25,326 bases of DNA from Candidatus Woesearchaeota archaeon (GTDB lineage Archaea > Nanobdellota > Nanobdellia > SCGC-AAA011-G17 > GW2011-AR17), in assembly GCA_964522895.1 (NCBI GenBank), contig CAZFZD010000002.1, forward strand, positions 1 through 25,326, given 5' to 3'. This document shows positions 3,984 to 19,121 of the stretch, piece by piece. Every line of letters begins with the position of its first letter. Within the stretch, counting starts at the first letter, position 1. The notes beneath the pieces are model-generated. The model searched no databases. It was not told the DNA's origin and was given only the letters and a program-made list of their open reading frames with translations. A program made the translations under genes and the position numbers.

Positions 3984-4571
3984 ATGGAAGATGTTAAAAA
4001 CCGTATAGAAGCAATTCTCTTTACTACAGGAAGATTCATGGATATTGAGGAAATCGGAAAACTGACAAACATAGCTTCTGTCGGGATTGTGAAAGATGCG
4101 ATGGAATCGCTTGTGCACGAATATAATGAAAGAGAGGGTTCGCTTGAAATCTCTCAGGAAAATAACAAGTACAAGCTGGCAATAAGAAAAGATTACGTCT
4201 ATTTAACTTCAAAGTTGCTCAATGACAGTGAACTTGACAGGCCCACCCAGGAGACCTTGGCAGTAATAGCTTACAAGCAGCCAGTATTACAGGCTGAAGT
4301 CGTAAAAATAAGAGGCAATAATTCATACGACCATATAAAATCCCTTAAGGAGAACGGATTCATTACTTCAGAGAAACACGGAAGGACCAGGTTGCTAAAA
4401 TTAACTTCAAAATTCTATGACTACTTTGATACAGCTGGCGAAAATATCAAAGCCCTGAAAAGCGCATTTTCTAAAGTTGAAGAGAAAGTCGGGGTAGATG
4501 AAATCCGCGAGATAGAAAAACAGGTTGAAGAGGAGATGGAATCAAAAGAAGAAAAGGAGAACAAGGAGTGA
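3984..4571 (+). CDS. scpB: segregation and condensation protein B (ScpB)
   Basis: IEAILFTTGRFMDIEEI, then ETLAVIAYKQPVLQAEVVKIRGNNSYDHIKSLKENGFI and GRTRLLKLTSKFYDYF reproduce the ScpB double winged-helix signature (LETLAIIAYkQPITraEIeeIRGV...GRP..Y.TT.FL). Confidence 0.82.
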   Translation: MEDVKNRIEAILFTTGRFMDIEEIGKLTNIASVGIVKDAMESLVHEYNEREGSLEISQENNKYKLAIRKDYVYLTSKLLNDSELDRPTQETLAVIAYKQPVLQAEVVKIRGNNSYDHIKSLKENGFITSEKHGRTRLLKLTSKFYDYFDTAGENIKALKSAFSKVEEKVGVDEIREIEKQVEEEMESKEEKENKE

Positions 4572-4575
4572 TATC

Positions 4576-6039
4576 ATGAAAAAGGCACACATAGTCCTTT
4601 TTGTTATCTTTATCGTAGTTTTTCAATTCAGGCTTCTTTTCGCATTTCAAACACCTTATTTAAGTTCTGATGATGCCTATTATAATCTTAGGTCTGCTGA
4701 AAAGATTACAGAAGATTTTAGCCCTATGCTTTTTGATGAGTTAAGCTATGGCGGAAGATATATTATCGATTCTCATCTATTTCATTATTTTCTTGCATTC
4801 CTTAACTTAATCCTTCCAATGAGCATAGTGTTCAAGCTTATCCCTGAACTATTGTTTGCATCATTGGTTTTTATCGTGTATGCAATCGCTAAAAAGATTA
4901 CTGAAAACAGCCATGCTGCACTTTTTGCGGCTTTCATTTCTGGTTTCATCCCTATACTGATAAGCAATACGCTGAATAATCTTACAGAATATGCATTGCT
5001 TTTCCCATTGTTGTTTTATCAAGTCTATTGTATGCTTAATCTTAAAACACATATGACCAAGTTCATAGTGCTGTCTTTCATATTGCCCTTATTGCATCCT
5101 TTCAGTTTCATACTCAGCATTGCAATGATATTTTACATAATACTGCTGAACCTTGAAGGGAAAAAGGTAGTAAAGGTACAAAGAGAAAGCATATTATTCT
5201 ACATCCTTATAGGCCTGCTGATCAACCTCATACTATACAAGAAAGCTTTCCTTGTTTCAGGGCTGCAGGCTGTATGGCAGAACATACCCCGTGCGCTTCT
5301 TGCAGAACATTTTGCCAACATAAACGTGCTTGCACTAATATACAACATAGGCTTTATACCATTAATCCTTGGGATTTTAGGAATTCTCATTGGAATGTTC
5401 AAGGAAAAACAAAAACCTGCCTATCTTTTAAGCGCAATGATTCTCACAACTTTTGTGCTTCTCTTCCTAAAGCTTATCAGCGTAGAATTAGGAATGATTT
5501 TCTTGGGTATACTTCTTGCAATCATCTCCGCATTGTCAATTGAAAAATTCATCAGCTACCTTGATATGACCAAATTTGTAAAGTATAAGGAAATAATCTT
5601 TTTTATCAGCATAATCCTTATAGTTTTAACCATAATTGTGCCATCTTACTATAATGCGAAAAATGCCCTTGACAATACCATTTCCTTTCAAGAAGTTGAA
5701 GCATTGAAATGGATTAAAGAAAATACAGAAGAAAAAAGCACAATCTTGTCTGCAGTCAATGAAGGGCATTATATAACAGGAATTGCTGACAGAAGGAATG
5801 TGGCGGATGATAATTTCATGCTTGCCCCTGACCGATATTCTGATGTCCAGGAAATGCTTACCACGGAATCACAGGTTAAGGCTCTGCAATTGATGGATAA
5901 GTACAGTGTAGATTATATCTATCTTAGCGAAAGAGCAAAGAAAGCTAAAGGCATAGAACAATTACGCTATGCTGATGAAGAATGTTTTAATAATATTTTT
6001 AAAAATGAAAAAGCGAAAATATACAAGGTATTATGTTAG
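4576..6039 (+). CDS. polytopic membrane protein, STT3/AglB-like GT-C glycosyltransferase homolog with a degenerate WWDYG motif (paralog 1)
   Basis: Start moved to the in-frame ATG at 4576 (MKKAHIVLF...), because the 4525 start overlaps scpB. About 11-13 hydrophobic helices. The first-loop motif SSDDAYYNLRSAE resembles the STT3 FDPYFNYR block. After the last TM, EALKWIKENTEEKSTILS-AVNEG-HYITGIADRRNVADDNF aligns with [26 protein letters not shown] of STT3. Confidence 0.55.
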   Translation: MKKAHIVLFVIFIVVFQFRLLFAFQTPYLSSDDAYYNLRSAEKITEDFSPMLFDELSYGGRYIIDSHLFHYFLAFLNLILPMSIVFKLIPELLFASLVFIVYAIAKKITENSHAALFAAFISGFIPILISNTLNNLTEYALLFPLLFYQVYCMLNLKTHMTKFIVLSFILPLLHPFSFILSIAMIFYIILLNLEGKKVVKVQRESILFYILIGLLINLILYKKAFLVSGLQAVWQNIPRALLAEHFANINVLALIYNIGFIPLILGILGILIGMFKEKQKPAYLLSAMILTTFVLLFLKLISVELGMIFLGILLAIISALSIEKFISYLDMTKFVKYKEIIFFISIILIVLTIIVPSYYNAKNALDNTISFQEVEALKWIKENTEEKSTILSAVNEGHYITGIADRRNVADDNFMLAPDRYSDVQEMLTTESQVKALQLMDKYSVDYIYLSERAKKAKGIEQLRYADEECFNNIFKNEKAKIYKVLC

Positions 6040-7426
6040 TATTGCAATAGTCTTGGCAGTATTCCTGCTTTCCATAGTGCCATTGCTGAGAACCAACCAT
6101 TCTTTTGCAGGCGAAGAAGCATACATGCTGCTGAGGATGGCAGAAAACCAAGGATTTTATGATGCATTGAGTTTTGGAGGCAGGTTCGCGCCTTATGCTC
6201 TGGGAACGGCTTCCATACTAAAGCCCAATCCTGAACTTCTAGGCTATGCATTGCCTTTCATAGCTGGTATGCTTTGCCTCTTATTGTTTCTGGGAATCTT
6301 GAAAAAGTTTGAGATTAAGGAAAGAGGCCTGGCAATAATTTTGTTTGTGCTTTCCCCTTCTTTCATCTATCTCTTTGGCACCCTGAATCAGCTTCTGATG
6401 CCAGTTGTGATTGTGCTATTGGCTTTTTTCGTCATGCTGAGAGATGGAAAAATAAGCTATCTTTCCGTTCCGCTGTTTGCAATCCTTCCTTTCTTCAATT
6501 TCATAGTAACACTTATTGCCTTATTCATGGCTTTTCTTTTGGTACACTTTAAGTTAAAGGGGAAATCTGCAGTATTTTATTCAAGCCTTGGCCTTACATT
6601 GCTCACTGGATTGGGTTTCTTGGGTTATATCTATAAGAATGCTGGATTCGAAAGTTTGCTTTTCACTTACGGTAAAACTGGAATCAATGGCGCAGTACAA
6701 AGATTGTTTGCTGAGATGGGGGGCAAATATGGACTAAGCATCTTCGGCTCAATTCTTGCCATCTTCGGAATAATTAACAATTGGAAAAAGAAGTACAAGG
6801 ACCTGTTTGTTTTCTTTTCGGTTTTTGCCCTTTTCATTCTTATGCTTTTCAGAGTTGAAGCAATAATTTTTATGAATCTATTTATCGCTGTGTTTGCTGC
6901 GAAAGGATTTACCTATTTCCTCAATGCCAGATGGGAAGCGAAAAATCTGCGCTTTTTCATAATCTTAACATTCATCTGCGGTATCCTCTTCATTACAGCA
7001 GCAGAAGAGAACCGCATAATAGATGAAAATCCTAATCTTGCTATGATTGAAGGGATGGAATTTTTAGAAAAACTTCCAAGCGGAACTGTCTTTTCAGATT
7101 ATAGTCGTGGTTTCTGGATAAATTATGCAGGAAAAACAAATGTTATGGACAGCAACTTTAAGTTTGCCCCTGATGTCAATGAAAGATGGAAAGACAGCCA
7201 AACATTATTCTTTACCAGAGACTGGAAAACTGCAAAAAGCATAATTGAAAAATACGAAATAAAGTATGTCTGGATTGATGAAATGCTCAAGCAAAAAATA
7301 TGGAATGATGAGGTTGAAGGGCTCCTTTTCCTTGCAAAATACGGCAAAAATCTAAAGAAGGTTTATGACAATACAGATATGCATGAAGAAATGGGCGTCA
7401 GGATCTGGGAATTTCAGGAAGAATAA
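6005..7426 (+). CDS. polytopic membrane protein, STT3/AglB-like GT-C homolog with a degenerate WWDYG motif (paralog 2)
   Basis: Start placed at ATG 6005 (MKKRKYTRYYV...). It overlaps the upstream gene by 35 nt. The architecture matches the upstream gene: GEEAYMLLRMAE, SFGGRF (upstream gene: SYGGRY), TVFS-DYSRG-FWINYAGKTNVMDSNFKFAPD, and KYEIKYVWIDE (upstream gene: KYSVDYIYLSE). Confidence 0.55.
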   Translation: MKKRKYTRYYVSIAIVLAVFLLSIVPLLRTNHSFAGEEAYMLLRMAENQGFYDALSFGGRFAPYALGTASILKPNPELLGYALPFIAGMLCLLLFLGILKKFEIKERGLAIILFVLSPSFIYLFGTLNQLLMPVVIVLLAFFVMLRDGKISYLSVPLFAILPFFNFIVTLIALFMAFLLVHFKLKGKSAVFYSSLGLTLLTGLGFLGYIYKNAGFESLLFTYGKTGINGAVQRLFAEMGGKYGLSIFGSILAIFGIINNWKKKYKDLFVFFSVFALFILMLFRVEAIIFMNLFIAVFAAKGFTYFLNARWEAKNLRFFIILTFICGILFITAAEENRIIDENPNLAMIEGMEFLEKLPSGTVFSDYSRGFWINYAGKTNVMDSNFKFAPDVNERWKDSQTLFFTRDWKTAKSIIEKYEIKYVWIDEMLKQKIWNDEVEGLLFLAKYGKNLKKVYDNTDMHEEMGVRIWEFQEE

Positions 7427-7428
7427 AA

Positions 7429-8694
7429 ATGCAAATTACAATAACCAGCATAGCAATATGGATTGTTTATGTATTATCATTATTCTTTCTCACATTCTGG
7501 CTTTTGACATTTCTTGAAAAAGGCTTGAAAGATAAGAAACAGAAACTGGATTCTTTTCCAAAAGTTACTGTGAGTGTTCCTGCATACAATGAAGAAGAGG
7601 GCCTGGCAGAAACTGTGAATTCAATATTGGCTCTTGATTATCCCAGGGATAAAGTGGAAATTATCATTGTCAATGACTGTTCCAAGGATAATACGAGAAA
7701 AGTTGCTGAACAGTTGAAAAAAGATAATGCTAACAGAGACATAAAGATAATCAACCATAAAACTAATCTTGGAAAAGGCAGGGGCATGAATAATGCGCTT
7801 AAGCTTGCAAATGGAGAATTCTTCGTGTGCCTTGATGCTGATTCTGTAATCCAGCCTAATGCATTGAAAAAGATGGTTCCTGTGTTCAAGGACAAAAAGG
7901 TTTCAACAGTGCTCCCATTGATGAAAGTGAAGAACCCCAAGGGCATGTTAGGAAAACTGCAATGGTGCGAATATCTCATAAACTTGTTTTATAAAGGAAT
8001 AATGGGCAAGGTAGACTGCATACATGTGTCGCCCGGACCTTTCAGCATATACAGAAAAGAAGCATTAGATAAGGTCGGAGGATTTGATGAGAATAATCTT
8101 ACTGAAGACTTAGAGATCACATTAAGAATGCAGAAAGCCAATTACAAGATTGTACAACTGCTTAATACTGTCGTTTACACTAGAGTTCCCCTTACCTGGA
8201 AAGGTTTTTATAAGCAAAGAAACAGATGGTATAAAGGCACAATGATTAACATGTTCGGATACAAGGACCTTTTACTAAATAAGAAATACGGTGATTTCGG
8301 CATCATACAAATGCCAAAAATCCTATTATCAGGATTCATAGCGGTCTTTGTGTTTTTTCTCATATTGTATCATCTCATAAGACCGCTTTTCATGTGGATC
8401 TATAATTCAACTTTTGTAAATTTCAATCTTGATGTGATGATTGCAAATTTTTACAATACTATAACTAATTTCAATCTTTTAGACCTCAATTACACCAACA
8501 TAATCTTCGGCGCAACAAGCATCATACTGGCCTTAATAATATTAAAACTGGCATTCAAATATACGCAAGAGCGGTACTCAAATCAAGGGTGGCTTTCTGT
8601 GCCGGCTTATTTGATACTTTACGGAATAATTGCTTCAGGCATCTGGCTGGGAGTTTTTATTGACTTAATATTCAGGAGGATACAAAAATGGTAA
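7429..8694 (+). CDS. family 2 glycosyltransferase, processive synthase type (PgaC/NodC/chitin- or cellulose-synthase-like), membrane-integrated
   Basis: N-terminal TM, then VSVPAYNEEE...IIVNDCSKDNT, DAD (VCLDADSV), TED (NLTEDLEITLRMQ) and QxxRW (YKQRNRWYKG), followed by several C-terminal TM helices. Confidence 0.8.
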   Translation: MQITITSIAIWIVYVLSLFFLTFWLLTFLEKGLKDKKQKLDSFPKVTVSVPAYNEEEGLAETVNSILALDYPRDKVEIIIVNDCSKDNTRKVAEQLKKDNANRDIKIINHKTNLGKGRGMNNALKLANGEFFVCLDADSVIQPNALKKMVPVFKDKKVSTVLPLMKVKNPKGMLGKLQWCEYLINLFYKGIMGKVDCIHVSPGPFSIYRKEALDKVGGFDENNLTEDLEITLRMQKANYKIVQLLNTVVYTRVPLTWKGFYKQRNRWYKGTMINMFGYKDLLLNKKYGDFGIIQMPKILLSGFIAVFVFFLILYHLIRPLFMWIYNSTFVNFNLDVMIANFYNTITNFNLLDLNYTNIIFGATSIILALIILKLAFKYTQERYSNQGWLSVPAYLILYGIIASGIWLGVFIDLIFRRIQKW

Positions 8695-13078: not shown

Positions 13079-14233
13079 ATGAGATTCAAAGAAGTTTATC
13101 TGGACAATGGAGCCACTACCAAAATAGACCCTAAAGCGCTTGAAGCCATGAGGCCATATTTTGAAAAGTATTACGGCAATCCGTCTTCCATACACACTTT
13201 TGGAGAAAAGGCCGGCGAAGGGCTAGAGAAGGCGAGAAAGATAATCGCAAAATCAATCAATGCAAAACCTGAAGAGATATATTTCACTTCAGGAGGCACT
13301 GAATCGAACAATCTGGCCCTGAAAGGCATTGCATTCGCAAACAAGGATAAGAATCACATCATTACAACAAAAGTTGAGCACAAGTCTGTCATCAACACCT
13401 GCAAGTGGCTGGAGAAGCAGGGCTTTAAGGTTAGCTATCTGAGCGTGGACAAGGAAGGGTTTGTTGATCCTGAAGAGCTCAAATCTGCAATCACCCCAGA
13501 AACTTTGATGTTCAGCGTAATCCACGGCAACAACGAAATAGGTACAATAAATAATTTGGAAGCATTAGGCAAGCTGTGCAAAGAAGCAGGCATAGAGTTC
13601 CATACTGATGCTTGCCAAAGCTATACGAAAACTGAGATAGATGTTGAAAAGCAAAATCTCAGCATGGTCACGTTAAACTCGCATAAGATTCATGGGCCTA
13701 AAGGCGTTGGCGCATTATACATAAGAAAGGGACTAAAGCTTGAGCCTTGGCAGCACGGCGGCAACCATGAAAAAGGCATGAGATCTGGAACAGAAAACGT
13801 GCACGGCATTGTGGGGTTTGCAGAAGCTGTGAAGCTTGGCATGAACAAGAAGCACGTGAAAACGATGGCTGAACTCAGGGACAGGCTTATTGAAGGCGTA
13901 TTAAAGATTCCTGATACAAAGCTCAACGGGCCCAATGGGGAAAAAAGATTGTGCAACAATGCAAATTTCTCCTTTTTAGCAATCGAAGGCGAGGCAATTG
14001 GAGGCTACCTAAATCAGAAGATGGTGGCAAGCTCTACAGGCTCTGCTTGTTCTGCAAAGACGCTGCAGCCAAGCTATGTGCTAAAGGCGATTGGACTTAC
14101 AGATGAGGAAGCCAATGGCAGCCTGAGGCTTACATTGAGCAGGTTCACAACAGAAGAAGAAATTGATTATGTTGTAAAGGTCCTGCCCAAGATAGTAAGC
14201 AAGCTAAGAAGATTCTCGCCCTTGACAAGTTAG
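13079..14233 (+). CDS. iscS: cysteine desulfurase (NifS/IscS family, PLP-dependent)
   Basis: YLDNGATT, FTSGGTESNN, PLP-lysine block LNSHKIHGPKGVGALY, MRSGTENV and active-site SSTGSACS. Length is 384 aa. Confidence 0.9.
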   Translation: MRFKEVYLDNGATTKIDPKALEAMRPYFEKYYGNPSSIHTFGEKAGEGLEKARKIIAKSINAKPEEIYFTSGGTESNNLALKGIAFANKDKNHIITTKVEHKSVINTCKWLEKQGFKVSYLSVDKEGFVDPEELKSAITPETLMFSVIHGNNEIGTINNLEALGKLCKEAGIEFHTDACQSYTKTEIDVEKQNLSMVTLNSHKIHGPKGVGALYIRKGLKLEPWQHGGNHEKGMRSGTENVHGIVGFAEAVKLGMNKKHVKTMAELRDRLIEGVLKIPDTKLNGPNGEKRLCNNANFSFLAIEGEAIGGYLNQKMVASSTGSACSAKTLQPSYVLKAIGLTDEEANGSLRLTLSRFTTEEEIDYVVKVLPKIVSKLRRFSPLTS

Positions 14234-15063
14234 AATATTTTTTTCAATACTTTAATTCTTGCATCATAATCCAATGAGAACCTGAAGATATTCCAAAAAA
14301 CCTTTTGCAACCAAGCAATCCATTCCTCATCATAGACATCATAATAAATCCTTTTGCTCTTTTCCATCTCATAAGATTTAAAATTTTTCTCTTCTACCTT
14401 AAACTGTGCAAAGCTATCATCTATTATGGCTCCTCTTAAGGGCTGATAACAATGCCTTATTTCAATAAGGTTGGGATATTTTTTGATTAATGGCAAAAGT
14501 TGATTGATATTCCTTATGGAAGAAAAAGTTATTCTCGATAAGATTTTAAGAGAGACCTTCCTTTGGAGAAGTTCTTCCATAACAGATAAAACTTTTTTAC
14601 CATTCTCTTCAATATTAGTAAAGGATAAATTGCCTGAGAAAAAAAGGATTTGGTTTTTTGCCTTCTTCATATTTGAAATCAAATTTTGATTATGCGGCAA
14701 TTCATCTTCATGATAATCTTCCACAGAGGCCTTTTTCTTCTCTTCAGGAATAAACTGGTAAATCTCCATGAAATCAAAATCTTCTTTTCTCCTTCCCAAT
14801 TTGATTTGCTCATAAAAATTCTCTTTCAAATCATCAGTGTGCATCGATTCTGCATGATTGTAGAATACAATCTTCAAGGCTCCTTGAGTCCCTTTTCTGA
14901 AAGTCTTTATGTCTAAGCGGCCGGTTTGGCTTTTTATCTGCTTTACATAAGAGTCTGCCGTGAGCCAGCTTTTCTTTATGAGCTTAGAAATTTCCTGTAC
15001 TGTCTTAGGCTCAGCTTTTACAAAATTGATTATTTTCTTGATATCCTGTTCTCTCAGCACCAT
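14230..15063 (-). CDS. hypothetical protein, possible winged-HTH regulator with a degenerate PLD-like C-terminal domain (TrmB-like architecture)
   Basis: The N-terminus KTVQEISKLIKKSWLTADSYVKQI...ALKIVFYN looks like a wHTH. The C-terminus ILFFSGNLS...IEIRHCYQPLRGAIIDD resembles degenerate HKD/PLD-like repeats. The gene is divergent from the radical SAM operon. The call is weak. Confidence 0.3.
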   Translation of the reverse strand: MVLREQDIKKIINFVKAEPKTVQEISKLIKKSWLTADSYVKQIKSQTGRLDIKTFRKGTQGALKIVFYNHAESMHTDDLKENFYEQIKLGRRKEDFDFMEIYQFIPEEKKKASVEDYHEDELPHNQNLISNMKKAKNQILFFSGNLSFTNIEENGKKVLSVMEELLQRKVSLKILSRITFSSIRNINQLLPLIKKYPNLIEIRHCYQPLRGAIIDDSFAQFKVEEKNFKSYEMEKSKRIYYDVYDEEWIAWLQKVFWNIFRFSLDYDARIKVLKKIF

Positions 15064-15094: not shown

Positions 15095-15171
15095 ATTTAT
15101 TAAACAATGTTATAAAAAAATTGAACTTAAGCTTATATCTAATTAAACACTATACTGTATTGGGTGATATC

Positions 15172-15462
15172 ATGATTAGAGGGATAGGCATTGACGGCGT
15201 CGTATCTGAAATAGGATGCTTGACAAAGAGTGATAGATTTATTGCTAAAAGGGAAGAATTGACAAAAAGCCTGATGCGCAGGTATAAGGCTGAAGACCTT
15301 GAAGCTGAAAGAGCCATAAATCATGCGATAGATTGTGGAGCCATATACCAAGAAGGCAGCAATATATGCCTAAGCATGGAAACAAACGAAAACTTGTTAG
15401 AAAAGATTTGCCCTTTCTGCGGTAAGGCCTTGAATTACAAGAAAGAAGATTATAACGAATAA
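15172..15462 (+). CDS. small (96 aa) Cys-containing protein, first gene of the radical SAM operon; function unknown
   Basis: I prefer ATG 15172 (MIRGIGIDGV...) over the TTG at 15121 because the SD-like GGTGAT at 15163..15168 precedes it. It has five Cys, including a C-terminal CPFC. Its stop is 3 nt before the radical SAM start. Confidence 0.45.
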   Translation: MIRGIGIDGVVSEIGCLTKSDRFIAKREELTKSLMRRYKAEDLEAERAINHAIDCGAIYQEGSNICLSMETNENLLEKICPFCGKALNYKKEDYNE

Positions 15463-15465
15463 AAA

Positions 15466-16737
15466 ATGATTTCAAACATAGTAAAGATAGAAAAAGAAAA
15501 GGACTGTTATGTGCTTTTCAACAAGAGAGGCATGGTGCTTGAACTAAGCCCTGAAGAATACAGCACCTTCAAGAAATACGGAAAGCAGAAAAATTTTCCT
15601 AAGAGGCATAGGGAATTTTTCAACAAACTGTGCAATTATGAAATGACTGACTTCCAGGATTATCAAGCTAAAGATGCAAAGAAAGACTATTCAAAAAGGC
15701 TGCTCCATCATGATTCTGCTGATCCAGTTTTTAAGGCTCCAATCATAGCACACTTGGGCATAACGCAAAGATGCAACATGCGCTGCAGATACTGTTCTGT
15801 CAGGGAACCTTACGAGAGTATGAAGGAACTTTCAACAGAGGAATGGAAAAAAATAATCAAAAATATTGCCGAGCTTGGAGTTTTTCAGATAGGCTTCACA
15901 GGAGGAGAACCAACATTAAGAGAGGATTTGATTGAACTTGCAGAATATGTCAACAGCTTAAACTGTACTTTTAATCTGACAACGAACTGCTGGCACCTCA
16001 GTGAAGAAATGATTGCCAAGCTAAAGAAAGCAGGCATGAGGCAATGCCAGGTATCATTAGACAGCCATTTGCCTGAAGTTAACGACAAACTCAGAACCGA
16101 AGGCAGTTGCAAAAAGGTGCAAAAAGCCATAAGGCTGCTTAGGAAACATAATATAACTGTGGGCATAGACTGCGTTGTTTCAAACAATAACATAAGGCAT
16201 ATAGAAAGCTTTGTGGAATGGCTGGGAAAAGAAAATGTGCCCTTTCTTACACTGATAAAAATCAAGCAGGGAGATTTGGCTCTAAGCTTATTCAAGGAAC
16301 TGCTGCCTCCTTATGAAAAATACAGCAGGCTTATTGAAAAGCTTTGCAGCAGGGAAAATAAAAATCCAAACATAACAATAGACTGCGGTTCAGTGAGCAA
16401 CCTGCAATATTCATTGAAAGAGGAAGATTTGCATAAGATACCTGTTGCAGGCTGTCCAGCAGGGCATACATTATTGTCCATCTCTCCAAACGGAGACATG
16501 TATCCGTGCGTGGCCCTAGGGCAGGATGAATTCAAGATAGGCAATGCGCTGAAAGATGATCTGAAAAAGCTGTGGCAAAAAAGCAAAGTCCTTAGAGAAC
16601 TTAGGCAGGTTAAATCAAAAGTAAGCGGAAAATGCAGGGATTGCGACAGGCTGGACTACTGCAGGGGCGGATGCAGAGGGATAGCATACTCGCTTTACCA
16701 TAATCTGTGGGAAGCAGATAAAACATGTAGGAGGTGA
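15466..16737 (+). CDS. radical SAM enzyme with a C-terminal SPASM domain and a ~95-aa N-terminal extension (possible RiPP recognition element)
   Basis: CX3CX2C at C103/C107/C110 (GITQRCNMRCRYCSV) and GGEPTL. The SPASM signature is CPAGHTLLSISPNGDMYPC (Cx12Gx4C) plus CRDCDRLDYCRGGC (Cx2Cx5Cx3C). The N-terminal CYVLFNKRGMVLELSPEEYSTFKKY resembles PqqD-like RRE strands and helix. Confidence 0.85.
   Translation: MISNIVKIEKEKDCYVLFNKRGMVLELSPEEYSTFKKYGKQKNFPKRHREFFNKLCNYEMTDFQDYQAKDAKKDYSKRLLHHDSADPVFKAPIIAHLGITQRCNMRCRYCSVREPYESMKELSTEEWKKIIKNIAELGVFQIGFTGGEPTLREDLIELAEYVNSLNCTFNLTTNCWHLSEEMIAKLKKAGMRQCQVSLDSHLPEVNDKLRTEGSCKKVQKAIRLLRKHNITVGIDCVVSNNNIRHIESFVEWLGKENVPFLTLIKIKQGDLALSLFKELLPPYEKYSRLIEKLCSRENKNPNITIDCGSVSNLQYSLKEEDLHKIPVAGCPAGHTLLSISPNGDMYPCVALGQDEFKIGNALKDDLKKLWQKSKVLRELRQVKSKVSGKCRDCDRLDYCRGGCRGIAYSLYHNLWEADKTCRR
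16729..16737 (+). promoter_or_regulatory. Shine-Dalgarno site for the 21-codon ORF
   Basis: AGGAGGTGA forms the last two codons plus the stop of the upstream radical SAM gene. It is followed by a 4-nt spacer and the ATG at 16742. It is complementary to the conserved archaeal/bacterial 16S 3' end (CCUCC core). Confidence 0.6.
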
Positions 16738-16741
16738 AACT

Positions 16742-16807
16742 ATGGAAATAAGAGCTGACGTCTTTATGAGCGGGCATTATGCTTATTTTTGCGAGCTGCC
16801 TTGCTAA
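16742..16807 (+). CDS. 21-aa candidate precursor peptide MEIRADVFMSGHYAYFCELPC
   Basis: Read by hand: ATG GAA ATA AGA GCT GAC GTC TTT ATG AGC GGG CAT TAT GCT TAT TTT TGC GAG CTG CCT TGC TAA. It is not in the ORF track because it is too short. It has a strong SD site, sits between two radical SAM/SPASM genes, and has an aromatic/Cys-rich C-terminal half. Confidence 0.5.
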   Translation: MEIRADVFMSGHYAYFCELPC

Positions 16808-16821
16808 ATATATGGATAAGC

Positions 16822-16849
16822 AGAATTAAAAAAATTCTTTTTTTATTTT
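16822..16849 (+). terminator. hairpin plus T-tract, possible attenuator or partial terminator after the peptide ORF
   Basis: AGAATT (16822..16827) pairs with AATTCT (16833..16838) across a 5-nt A loop. The following TTTTTTTATTTT tract resembles the oligo-T signals at which archaeal RNA polymerase terminates. Confidence 0.3.
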
Positions 16850-16865
16850 AACCAAGGGAGGAAAA

Positions 16866-17846
16866 ATGGAAAGGAGACTAGTTGAAGTGGCTTTCGAGGT
16901 CACCTACAAATGCAACCTGAGATGCAGACACTGCTATAACAGGAAAAATCTCAGCAATAAAGAAGAAATGGAAACAAGAGAGGTTTTCAAGGCATTAGAG
17001 ATAATAAGGAGATTCGGTGCAGAGAAAGTCAAGTTCGGGGGAGGAGAACCGCTAACAAGAAGAGACTTCTTTGAAATATTAAATCATGCAAATGGGCTAG
17101 GTTTTGAGACCAATTTTTCAAGCAATGGACTATTAATTCAAAAAAATCTACAGGAAATTGTGGCTGCAGGAATGAAAAGAGTGCAGATCAGCCTTGATAG
17201 TGTCGGCGAGAAACATGACACAGCAAGAAATTACAAGGGCCTGTTCAAGATAGTTGAAAATTCAGCAAGAATCCTCAAGGAAAAAGGCATAAAAGTTGAT
17301 TTCGCCACCACATTAACAAGAAACAATCATCGTGATTTTAATTTAATTCTTGATTTCTGCAAGAGAAACAATGCAAGAAGATGGCGGATAATGAAATACA
17401 TCCCTTATGGGATTGAAGATAAACTGATGCTCACTAAAAAGGAATATAAGGCAGCTATAGAAAGTATCCTGAAACTTAAAGGAGAGACAAAAGAACCAGA
17501 AATAATAGTCGCAAGGGAATTTGACCTGATAAGGGATAAAAAAGACTACAATGACATGCAGTGTTTCGGAGGCAAGAGCTTTTTCAGCCTGAAGGCAAAC
17601 GGAAATGTCACGCCCTGTTCCTACATAGACAACATAATATGTGGCAACATTCTCAGAGACAGAATTGAGGATATCTGGAATAACATAAGGATGGTTGAAT
17701 TCAGCAGGGACCACCATGATACAGGATGCGAATTTGCAGAAAAATGCAAGGGCGGTTGCAAGGCAGTATCCCTTCGCCTTGGAAAGAAAGTTCATTGTGA
17801 TCCTTACTGCTGGACAAAAATGTCTAGAAATTCTACAAGAGCTTAA
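16866..17846 (+). CDS. radical SAM enzyme with a SPASM/twitch-type C-terminal domain and no N-terminal extension
   Basis: SD GGGAGG at 16856..16861. CX3CX2C at C16/C20/C23 (TYKCNLRCRHCYN) and GGGEPLT. C-terminal CFGGKSFFSLKANGNVTPC (Cx12Gx4C), then DTGCEFAEKCKGGC (the first Cys of Cx2Cx5Cx3C is replaced by Asp), then CDPYC. Confidence 0.85.
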   Translation: MERRLVEVAFEVTYKCNLRCRHCYNRKNLSNKEEMETREVFKALEIIRRFGAEKVKFGGGEPLTRRDFFEILNHANGLGFETNFSSNGLLIQKNLQEIVAAGMKRVQISLDSVGEKHDTARNYKGLFKIVENSARILKEKGIKVDFATTLTRNNHRDFNLILDFCKRNNARRWRIMKYIPYGIEDKLMLTKKEYKAAIESILKLKGETKEPEIIVAREFDLIRDKKDYNDMQCFGGKSFFSLKANGNVTPCSYIDNIICGNILRDRIEDIWNNIRMVEFSRDHHDTGCEFAEKCKGGCKAVSLRLGKKVHCDPYCWTKMSRNSTRA

Positions 17847-17913: not shown

Positions 17914-18141
17914 ATGGAAAGTACAGACAGGCCATTAGACGCATTAAACAATGCACGAAACCAAAGAGTCATAGTAGAACTGAAAAACAAGGCACAAGTT
18001 ACCGGCAAGCTGAAAGCATTCGACATACATATCAATGTTGTTCTGGAAGAAGCTGAAGAGCTTGAAAACGGCGAATTGAAAAGAAAATTAGGAACCACAT
18101 TCATCCGTGGCGACATGATAGTAATCATATCACCTGCATAA
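17914..18141 (+). CDS. Sm-like (LSm/SmAP) archaeal protein
   Basis: Start at ATG 17914, preceded by GGAGG (17902..17906). RPLDALNNARNQRVIVELKNKAQVTGKLKAFDIHINVVLEEAEELENGE...KLGTTFIRGDMIVIISP gives the Sm1 and Sm2 motifs. The conserved archaeal Sm-L37e gene pair is present. Confidence 0.9.
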   Translation: MESTDRPLDALNNARNQRVIVELKNKAQVTGKLKAFDIHINVVLEEAEELENGELKRKLGTTFIRGDMIVIISPA

Positions 18142-19006: not shown

Positions 19007-19032
19007 GCCAATGTTACTTACTTTTTGCTTAT

Positions 19033-19116
19033 GCAGGGGTGCCGGAGCGGTCAAACGGGATGGGCTTAGGACCCATTGGCTTAGTGCCTTCGCAGGTTCG
19101 AATCCTGTCTCCTGCA
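19033..19116 (+). tRNA. tRNA-Leu (anticodon UAG), 84 nt, long variable arm, no encoded CCA
   Basis: Hand-folded. The acceptor GCAGGGG pairs with CTCCTGC and the discriminator is A. The anticodon stem ATGGG pairs with CCCAT around the loop C-T-TAG-G-A (U33, G37). The variable arm is GGC-TTAG-TGCC. The T arm is GCAGG-TTCGAAT-CCTGT. Confidence 0.9.
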
Positions 19117-19121
19117 TTTTT
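19117..19121 (+). terminator. oligo-T termination signal after tRNA-Leu
   Basis: TTTTT follows the discriminator base immediately. Confidence 0.35.

Follow-up and report, generated by a model that had tools for sequence, protein, structure and literature searches.

Does the short spacer between two radical S-adenosylmethionine (SAM) genes of a Candidatus Woesearchaeota archaeon hold a gene of its own, and, if so, what would a peptide of 21 amino acids (aa) do there? The locus lies on contig CAZFZD010000002.1 of NCBI GenBank assembly GCA_964522895.1, of which positions 1 to 25,326 of the forward strand were analyzed; this whole stretch of 25,326 nucleotides (nt) is called the window below. An original prediction had singled out an unannotated 21-codon open reading frame (ORF) between the two enzyme genes, here named rSAM1 and rSAM2, and its central reading, a genuine small gene serving the flanking enzymes as a precursor-type peptide, is supported by conservation. 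We consider it likely that the ORF is a real, translated gene encoding the substrate of rSAM1, a precursor of the kind known from peptides that are synthesized on ribosomes and modified after translation (RiPPs). The features on which the argument turns are as follows.

15466 to 16737, forward strand: rSAM1, 423 aa, a radical SAM/SPASM enzyme with an N-terminal domain resembling a RiPP recognition element (RRE), from Pfam, AlphaFold 2 (AF2) and Foldseek

16729 to 16737, forward strand: Shine-Dalgarno (SD) site AGGAGGTGA, made up of the stop codon of rSAM1 and the two codons before it

16742 to 16807, forward strand: peptide gene, 21 codons with TAA at 16805 to 16807, product MEIRADVFMSGHYAYFCELPC

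16835 to 16849, forward strand: T-rich tract TTCTTTTTTTATTTT, 3' of the peptide gene and before rSAM2

16866 to 17846, forward strand: rSAM2, 326 aa, a radical SAM/SPASM enzyme without an RRE (Pfam), with the SD site GGGAGG

A ribosome-binding site within the end of rSAM1

The 9-nt SD site, its 4-nt distance from the start codon, the 21-codon frame, the TAA stop and the 128-nt spacer were all borne out by the sequence. The 3' end of rSAM1 reads ACA TGT AGG AGG TGA, and only the nucleotides AACT separate AGGAGGTGA from the peptide ATG at 16742; the 128 nt extend from the rSAM1 stop to the rSAM2 ATG at 16866. AGGAGGTGA occurs a single time in the window with both strands counted, and GGAGG has a frequency of 0.43 per kb per strand. 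A scan of the window likewise recovered the two further sites that had been named, GGGAGG (16856 to 16861) ahead of rSAM2 and GGAGG ahead of the LSm gene that follows it with a start at 17914. GGAGG-type starts in the window belong only to the peptide gene, rSAM2, the LSm gene and a gene at 8688, all of them internal genes, and the start at 4576 has AGGAG only. The first genes in the window mostly have a TATA-like TTTATAA or TTATAAA about 25 to 30 nt before the ATG and lack an SD site. Archaeal first genes are commonly leaderless and internal genes SD led, and the window suggests this usual pattern. SD sites pair with the 3' end of 16S rRNA; there is no 16S gene within the window.

The spacer showed no significant hairpin or other fold (z = -0.15), and Rfam, run on the window, gave no element there. 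The sole Rfam and ARAGORN match in the window is a tRNA-Leu with anticodon TAG at 19032 to 19117 on the forward strand. A scan for sigma-70 promoters and hairpin terminators, which is not built for archaea, returned nothing on the forward strand near the ORF.

A family of peptide genes linked to rSAM1 orthologs

Starting from an alignment of 36 rSAM1 homologs, we collected loci from three sources: GTDB genomes, one for each species (32 loci), JGI metagenomes (55 loci) and the contig of the closest relative. These loci contained 40 distinct homologous peptide genes encoding 21 to 66 aa, the window copy being the shortest. The linkage to the enzyme is strict: each of the 40 adjoins an rSAM1 ortholog (41 to 70% identity), and the peptide motif was seen beside none of the more distant radical SAM genes (at most 31% identity; 0 of 34 loci). 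The hosts are Nanoarchaeota, Woesearchaeota and Pacearchaeota, Portnoybacteria (a bacterium of the candidate phyla radiation [CPR]), Clostridia and Bacilli, and the nearest database relatives come from metagenome-assembled genomes of Nanoarchaeota and Woesearchaeota. Of the 40 members, 39 have a GGAGG-type SD site no more than 20 nt 5' of the peptide ATG, and in several members this ATG overlaps the rSAM1 stop as ATGA. At one locus (L013, peptide gene at 1132 to 1218) the peptide gene stands 5' of both enzymes instead of after rSAM1, an order showing that the linkage is to the enzyme pair and not to a fixed position. A JGI contig product of 685 aa (P0060) looked like a fusion of rSAM1 and rSAM2, but the deletion behind it removes the SPASM end of rSAM1 together with the peptide gene, so that this degenerate copy or assembly artifact is uninformative.

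Ratios of nonsynonymous to synonymous change (pN/pS) were calculated over 20 aligned codons for 13 close archaeal sequences and for 9 sequences from Clostridia. In the peptide frame the ratio was 0.146 for the archaea (pS of 0.85) and 0.012 for the Clostridia (pS of 0.52), while the two other frames gave about 0.6 to 1.5. Third codon positions, with a variability of 0.36 against 0.11 and 0.07, changed 3 to 5 times as often as first and second positions. Given the frame-specific pN/pS, the third-position variability and the conserved SD site, together with the lack of an Rfam match or a fold, the pattern of substitution indicates that the 21-codon ORF encodes a protein and is subject to purifying selection. 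Relatives with the enzymes carry an intact ORF, in which synonymous change far exceeds nonsynonymous change, rather than the broken frame that the original prediction had named as the observation that would tell against it. A 21-codon ATG frame is in itself not rare in 128 nt at 39% G+C, and the ORF could on that ground be a chance product of an AT-rich spacer; the conservation, the pN/pS values, the conserved SD site and the restriction to rSAM1 orthologs contradict this, and we give it next to no credence.

The ORF could instead be a leader or arrest peptide, or a coupling device, that tunes rSAM2 without being a substrate. Its place between two genes would suit such a role, as would the Leu-Pro near its end, which is found in some stalling peptides, and the T-rich tract on its 3' side. 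This tract, TTCTTTTTTTATTTT, is a possible archaeal oligo-T terminator or attenuator between the peptide gene and rSAM2, and 25 of the 40 family members have five or more T in a row no further than 80 nt from the peptide stop. However, the core of the peptide is kept across two domains of life while the downstream gene varies (rSAM2 here; a protein with an HExxH motif, or nothing, in bacteria), and at L013 the peptide precedes both enzymes. Moreover, translation continues for 2 to 45 codons beyond Leu-Pro in most relatives, and the RNA has no significant structure. A regulatory role is thus very improbable.

A lineage-specific leader and a core shared between domains

The suggestion that the peptide divides into a charged N-terminal half and a C-terminal half rich in modifiable residues agrees with its conservation, which separates a lineage-specific, leader-like part of about 10 aa from a conserved core.

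16742 to 16771, forward strand: leader-like part, M1 to S10, lineage specific, MEIRADVFMS in the window

16772 to 16801, forward strand: conserved core, G11 to P20, G-H-Y-A-Y-F-x-E-L-P

Residues 1 to 10 are kept within lineages and differ between archaea and bacteria. Within the core, G11, H12 and L19 do not vary in either domain, and Y13 and P20 are nearly invariant, with Pro20 replaced by Val or Leu at L007 and L037; position 14 is A, S or C, position 15 Y or F, and position 16 F, L or Y. Beyond P20 the relatives have a tail that is hypervariable in both length and sequence and that the window peptide lacks. The archaeal members follow the pattern M-E-V/I-R-A/V-D-K-F/L-x-S/G-G-H-Y-A/S-Y/F-F/L-x-E-L-P-x-R, with 0 to 45 variable residues after it. 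The form in Clostridia is MVKLIISAMACGHYCYYSRLPKRx, that in Bacilli MKVIVSKMAAGHLSYFTRLPKR, and that in Portnoybacteria MVKVVISAMATGHYAYFSRLPKRNKKRVEKKK; a further family peptide, beside the window 21-mer and the longer archaeal members, is MVKLIISAMACGHYCYYSRLPKRG. As judged from the alignment, a short leader precedes the cross-domain core, and a follower may or may not come after it. The L19-P20 pair, with the basic residue that comes after it in relatives, is probably a recognition or cleavage mark, and the variable tail of the relatives is probably dispensable.

With its main claim the original prediction was right, but two of its three chemical suggestions were wrong. It had proposed that the two Cys residues form thioether links, as in a sactipeptide or ranthipeptide precursor. 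Cys17 and Cys21 are indeed present in the window peptide, and the SPASM enzymes of the locus show a generic resemblance to sactisynthases (StsB, 124 bits; PapB, 99 bits; both far below cutoff). Against this, Cys17 is replaced by V, S, A, C, E or T in relatives, Cys21, the last residue, is found only in the window peptide, and many members are entirely free of Cys, such as MEVRADKFLSGHYAYFVELPER. We regard a thioether-bridged product as extremely improbable. The likeness to PqqA that had been drawn stands for size and layout, PqqA being about 23 aa, but not for the Tyr and Glu cross-link partners: E18 is R, G or N in bacteria and Q in archaeal L013, and the peptide contains no E-x3-Y spacing. 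The third suggestion, an aromatic three-residue cyclophane, is the sole one that fits the conservation pattern as aligned here, with an invariant H12, a nearly invariant Y13, a small residue at 14, Y or F at 15 and F, L or Y at 16.

rSAM1 as the candidate maturase

The candidate maturase of the peptide is rSAM1. Both it and rSAM2 match PF04055 (Radical_SAM) and PF13186 (SPASM) in Pfam. The invariant cysteines of rSAM1 are C103, C107 and C110, which form the CX3CX2C core, and eight in the C-terminal part (C307, C330, C348, C390, C393, C399, C403 and C421), a set that fits a full 7-Cys SPASM domain with two auxiliary clusters. The AF2 model, with a predicted local distance difference test (pLDDT) value of 92.9, has an N-terminal domain followed by the radical SAM barrel and the SPASM domain. 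The N-terminal domain (about residues 1 to 60) contains strands at 5 to 11, 14 to 19 and 24 to 27 and helices at 29 to 38 and 49 to 57. The best Foldseek match, over the full length, was SuiB with its bound peptide SuiA (5v1t, TMq 0.70), followed by PqqE, anSME and SkfB. Among solved structures the best sequence-profile match was PqqE (6c8v, E value of 8.8e-29), and residues 4 to 421 of rSAM1 could be aligned by profile with TigE (8VPO), the RRE region included. The RRE of TigE comprises residues 3 to 85 (PMC10878394).

No curated family claimed either enzyme. All of the matching NCBIfam families fell below their cutoffs (104 of 104 for rSAM1 and 81 of 81 for rSAM2), and no curated SPASM maturase family (GeoRSP, WgkB, DynA, ScmE, ACGX and others) reached its own. 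The scores for rSAM1 against these cutoffs were 165 of 400 for GeoRSP, 157.8 of 265 for MftC (TIGR03962), 153 of 650 for WgkB and 150.4 of 381 for PqqE (TIGR02109); no XyeB-type model was among the best 25 matches. Prokaryotic viperin, a defense protein, was considered and rejected: the PADLOC pVip matches, at 86 to 101 bits, cover the radical SAM core only, the NCBIfam score was 82 against a cutoff of 180, and both enzymes carry SPASM domains.

Strict co-occurrence and strong purifying selection are what one would expect of a binding partner too, so that the peptide could be an unmodified structural or regulatory subunit of a radical SAM complex. There is a precedent of a kind in TigE, whose own C-terminal tail fills the RRE groove (PMC10878394). 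On the other side, a 21-aa peptide next to a SPASM enzyme with a putative RRE is the canonical arrangement of substrate and enzyme, and the invariant His, the Tyr and the aromatic residue are those hit by known radical cross-linkers (PMC11499958). We find a subunit role quite improbable.

Proposed function and mechanism

The peptide is most likely a RiPP-type precursor with a radically cross-linked His/Tyr core. The strong SD site from which it would be translated is observed, and coupling to the translation of rSAM1 is probable. The segment MEIRADVFMS, with its alternating hydrophobic pattern, would dock as a strand on the RRE-like domain of rSAM1, a step we infer from the fold match to SuiB with SuiA and from the alignment to TigE. 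A 5'-deoxyadenosyl radical would then take a hydrogen in the core G11-H12-Y13-(A/S/C)14-(Y/F)15-(F/L/Y)16, and a side-chain cross-link would form within H12 to F16 while the two SPASM auxiliary clusters accept an electron. The likeliest link by precedent would be a three-residue cyclophane from His12-C2 to the beta-carbon of residue 14; in addition or instead, the ring of Tyr13 or of the aromatic residue at 15 could be joined to the beta-carbon two residues further on. A second SPASM enzyme, here rSAM2, would add a second cross-link or another modification. Known radical SAM enzymes join His-C2 to the beta-carbon of the third residue in HAA, HNR and HTK motifs (PMC11499958) and in an HAS motif (PMC12912966), and because of these known His-x-x cross-links H12-Y13-A/S/C14 would be the most economical target. 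By the same analogy, Y13-x-Y/F15 may be an alternative target or a second ring.

Several observations weigh against this proposal. The N-terminal domain of rSAM1 has only two clear helices, as opposed to the three strands and three helices (a winged helix-turn-helix [wHTH]) of a textbook RRE, and Pfam found no PqqD-type domain in the enzyme. While rSAM1 matches PqqE, SuiB and anSME at about 100 bits, its match to ChlB (9gm3) amounts to 36 bits and covers the core only; ChlB is the only solved enzyme among those matched that is named a triceptide synthase by PMC11499958. Because rSAM1 is so far from ChlB, the cyclophane proposal draws on motif logic only, and it would mean that the enzyme works like a cyclophane synthase, not that it belongs to that group. 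The role of rSAM2 is taken from synteny alone. A protease or exporter is not conserved among the archaeal loci, neither exporters nor immunity genes were seen, and the bacterial flanks, searched for exporters and proteases, contained only housekeeping genes (such as PurA, PurB and DNA polymerase I [Pol I]). A few orthologous loci are without a recognizable peptide, namely L026/L049, which has a scaffold gap 150 nt downstream, and L047, L052 and L053, which lie at contig ends. Finally, both the translation and the modification of the peptide are predictions from sequence.

The second SPASM enzyme and other neighbors

A second SPASM enzyme, upstream or downstream, is present in every locus with enough flanking sequence. 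In the close loci of Nanoarchaeota and Woesearchaeota, orthologs of rSAM2 (46 to 60% identity) lie directly 3' of the peptide gene, and rSAM2 is the probable second modifying enzyme. Other Woesearchaeota, Portnoybacteria, Clostridia and Bacilli have a second SPASM enzyme of a different, upstream type; in a neighbor-joining tree, which carries no support values, the two types group together and apart from rSAM1. The locus L026/L049, labeled Micrarchaeota, has three consecutive SPASM radical SAM genes and the most divergent rSAM1 ortholog, in which the match begins at residue 50.

Two further genes lie on the 5' side of rSAM1 in the window.

14230 to 15063, reverse strand: TrmBL2-like protein, 277 aa, with a wHTH and a phospholipase D (PLD)-fold domain, divergent to the radical SAM operon

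15169 to 15462, forward strand: ORF of 97 aa with an AGGTGA SD site and a C-terminal CxxC, directly 5' of rSAM1, with weak hints of a zinc ribbon

The 277-aa protein has no Pfam match. Its AF2 model (pLDDT of 88.5) gave TrmBL2 as the top Foldseek matches and then PLD-fold nucleases. Proteins of this family with 277 to 279 aa occupy the same divergent position in 17 archaeal loci. Among the best 120 of its 517 homologs, the named hosts are Nanoarchaeota and Woesearchaeota and nearly all of the proteins are unnamed or called "predicted transcriptional regulator"; as modeled, it is likely a regulator linked to the cluster. The 97-aa ORF is doubtful as a part of the system: related loci show no counterpart, and other genes, often AAA_28 kinase-like, hold its position.

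In all bacterial loci the position of the TrmBL2-like protein is taken by a regulator with an NrtR-type Nudix domain and a wHTH. The loci of Clostridia (L018 to L023, L029 to L032 and L048) always have, 3' of the peptide gene, a 215-aa protein (for example, L020, 5475 to 6122) with the HExxH-type motif VLEHELFH; nothing but a phage metallopeptidase model matched it, and that weakly (E value of 0.0057), so that the protein is a candidate for a peptidase acting in leader removal or excision. A His_Phos_1 protein lies beside the cluster in the loci of Bacilli. At least seven archaeal loci (L006, L009, L012, L028, L033, L047 and L053) have an AAA_28 (NadR kinase-like) gene adjoining the cluster; at L009, L012 and L029, the last from Clostridia, an ExExK domain, CYTH-like by our own reading, is fused to such a gene or lies next to it.

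These neighborhoods bear on another outcome for the same enzyme and substrate, in which a small molecule would be excised from the His/Tyr core and used inside the cell, like pyrroloquinoline quinone (PQQ) or mycofactocin. The part kept between Archaea and Bacteria is the core and not the leader, and conservation of the core sets PqqA and MftA apart from bacteriocin-like RiPPs. Each locus has a single peptide gene, with neither exporter nor immunity gene, among housekeeping flanks (LSm, NifS-like, elongation factor EF-1alpha, S10, PurA/PurB and Pol I), and the hosts include DPANN archaea with small genomes and a CPR bacterium. PqqE is the closest solved sequence relative of rSAM1, and MftC and PqqE are among its top NCBIfam scores, although below cutoff. 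In addition, the loci of Clostridia have the putative HExxH peptidase on the 3' side of the peptide gene, and neighbors that handle nucleotides or organophosphates recur (NrtR-type Nudix, AAA_28 kinase-like, CYTH-like and His_Phos_1). However, the archaeal loci have no conserved tailoring or excision enzymes like PqqB, PqqC and PqqF or MftD, MftE and MftF, a partner oxidoreductase was not identified, and the long, variable C-terminal tails, with totals of up to 66 aa, are unlike PqqA. We treat an excised intracellular cofactor as a serious possibility but a rather unlikely one. Its more specific form, in which the peptide would be the precursor of an undescribed cofactor or metabolite whose His-Tyr(-aromatic) core is cross-linked by two SPASM enzymes, perhaps with a tie to NAD-type or nucleotide chemistry in view of these recurring neighbors, is more tentative still.

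Further observations were made on the loci and the window. A protein of 239 to 248 aa with no Pfam match is encoded just 5' of the radical SAM genes both in L001 (2775 to 3494), from Nanoarchaeota, and in L027 (1563 to 2309), labeled Gammaproteobacteria; this shared protein hints at joint transfer of the cluster genes across domains or at misbinning. At 4525 to 7426 on the forward strand of the window are two overlapping genes for multipass membrane proteins of 504 and 485 aa, and a gene resembling glycosyltransferase family 2 (GT2) follows them at 7429 to 8694, the group looking by eye like a glycosylation module. The window also contains ORFs that we take, from inspection of their translations, to be aRF1-, S8e- and valyl-tRNA synthetase-like and that give it the look of a DPANN archaeal contig.

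Comparison with known peptide-modifying systems

The PQQ system (PqqA, PqqD and PqqE) resembles the one proposed here in having a tiny peptide, to be set beside the short forms of 21 to 24 aa in this family, with a short recognition part and an aromatic core, and in combining a SPASM enzyme with an RRE or, here, an RRE-like domain. Among solved enzymes rSAM1 finds its best sequence match in PqqE, which also ranks second by fold, and in both systems the core is kept over a wide phylogenetic distance. Unlike the separate PqqD, the RRE-like domain is fused within rSAM1; the PqqE model scored below cutoff, the E-x3-Y is lacking, and a second SPASM enzyme is present. No genes like pqqB, pqqC, pqqD or pqqF were seen among the neighbors. 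Mycofactocin biosynthesis (MftA, MftB and MftC) likewise uses a small peptide and a SPASM enzyme to make a redox-cofactor precursor. It differs in that MftA chemistry needs a C-terminal Val-Tyr, whereas the core here is internal and the C termini vary; moreover, MftC scored below cutoff, and no equivalents of mftD, mftE or mftF were seen.

With the triceptide systems (HaaB, HtkB, YhhB and MicB) the family shares overlapping aromatic-X-X motifs, H12-Y13-A/S/C14, Y13-x-Y/F15 and Y/F15-F/L/Y16-x. By the definition of PMC11499958 this motif is present in the core, a weak feature given that such motifs are short. Unlike the triceptide enzymes, rSAM1 is weakly similar to ChlB, the leader is only about 10 aa long, and there is one motif block instead of repeats. 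The streptide system (SuiA/SuiB or StrA/StrB) matches in the fold of the full-length enzyme, including the N-terminal peptide-binding domain, and in its three-domain plan, and SuiB joins side chains of a short peptide through a C-C bond, which is comparable to what is proposed here. In contrast, the enzymes share about 19% identity, the peptides have no conserved Lys/Trp pair, the hosts are different, and there is a second enzyme; no export or processing gene such as that of the streptide system was seen in the loci examined. Darobactin and dynobactin are made by SPASM enzymes (DarE and DynA) that fuse rings on neighboring aromatic residues of a short core, and dynobactin has a His-Tyr link. 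By analogy, two rings could explain the two enzymes here. Yet a single enzyme makes both rings in those systems, the DynA model reached 106 against a cutoff of 450, and the W-x-W motif does not occur in this family.

A peptide family whose short forms escape gene prediction

The claim that the ORF is unannotated was confirmed and can be extended to its relatives. The window 21-mer and seven other short members, of 22 to 27 aa, were absent from about 15 billion predicted proteins, while longer archaeal members do appear in protein databases as "hypothetical protein" only. The profile search for the peptide was run with a 50-aa family member as the first row of the alignment, and neither Pfam nor NCBIfam matched any of five family members scanned at E values of up to 10. 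A full-text literature search on strings of the core motif returned nothing relevant, and the literature on radical SAM RiPPs of DPANN archaea and Woesearchaeota and on NrtR yielded no description of the system. A genome-mining survey of archaea counted radical SAM clusters, including those of DPANN, and activated none (bioRxiv 10.1101/2024.10.07.616454).

By these comparisons the family would be a previously undescribed one of a known kind, a RiPP-type precursor with an RRE-SPASM maturase. Very few archaeal RiPPs are known, and for one type of archaeal cluster the missing precursor is now defined, as peptides of 21 to 66 aa with a G-H-Y core, accompanied by a maturase and a constant second SPASM enzyme. 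Because the short forms, including all of the bacterial ones, escape gene callers, the system has been overlooked also in gut Firmicutes. It is the core, not the leader, that archaea and bacteria share, and a conserved molecular function of the product is therefore probable. Such a function turns a new cofactor derived from a peptide into a realistic prospect for organisms with a poorly understood metabolism, and, if this is true, the cofactor would be common to DPANN archaea, a CPR bacterium, and gut Clostridia and Bacilli.

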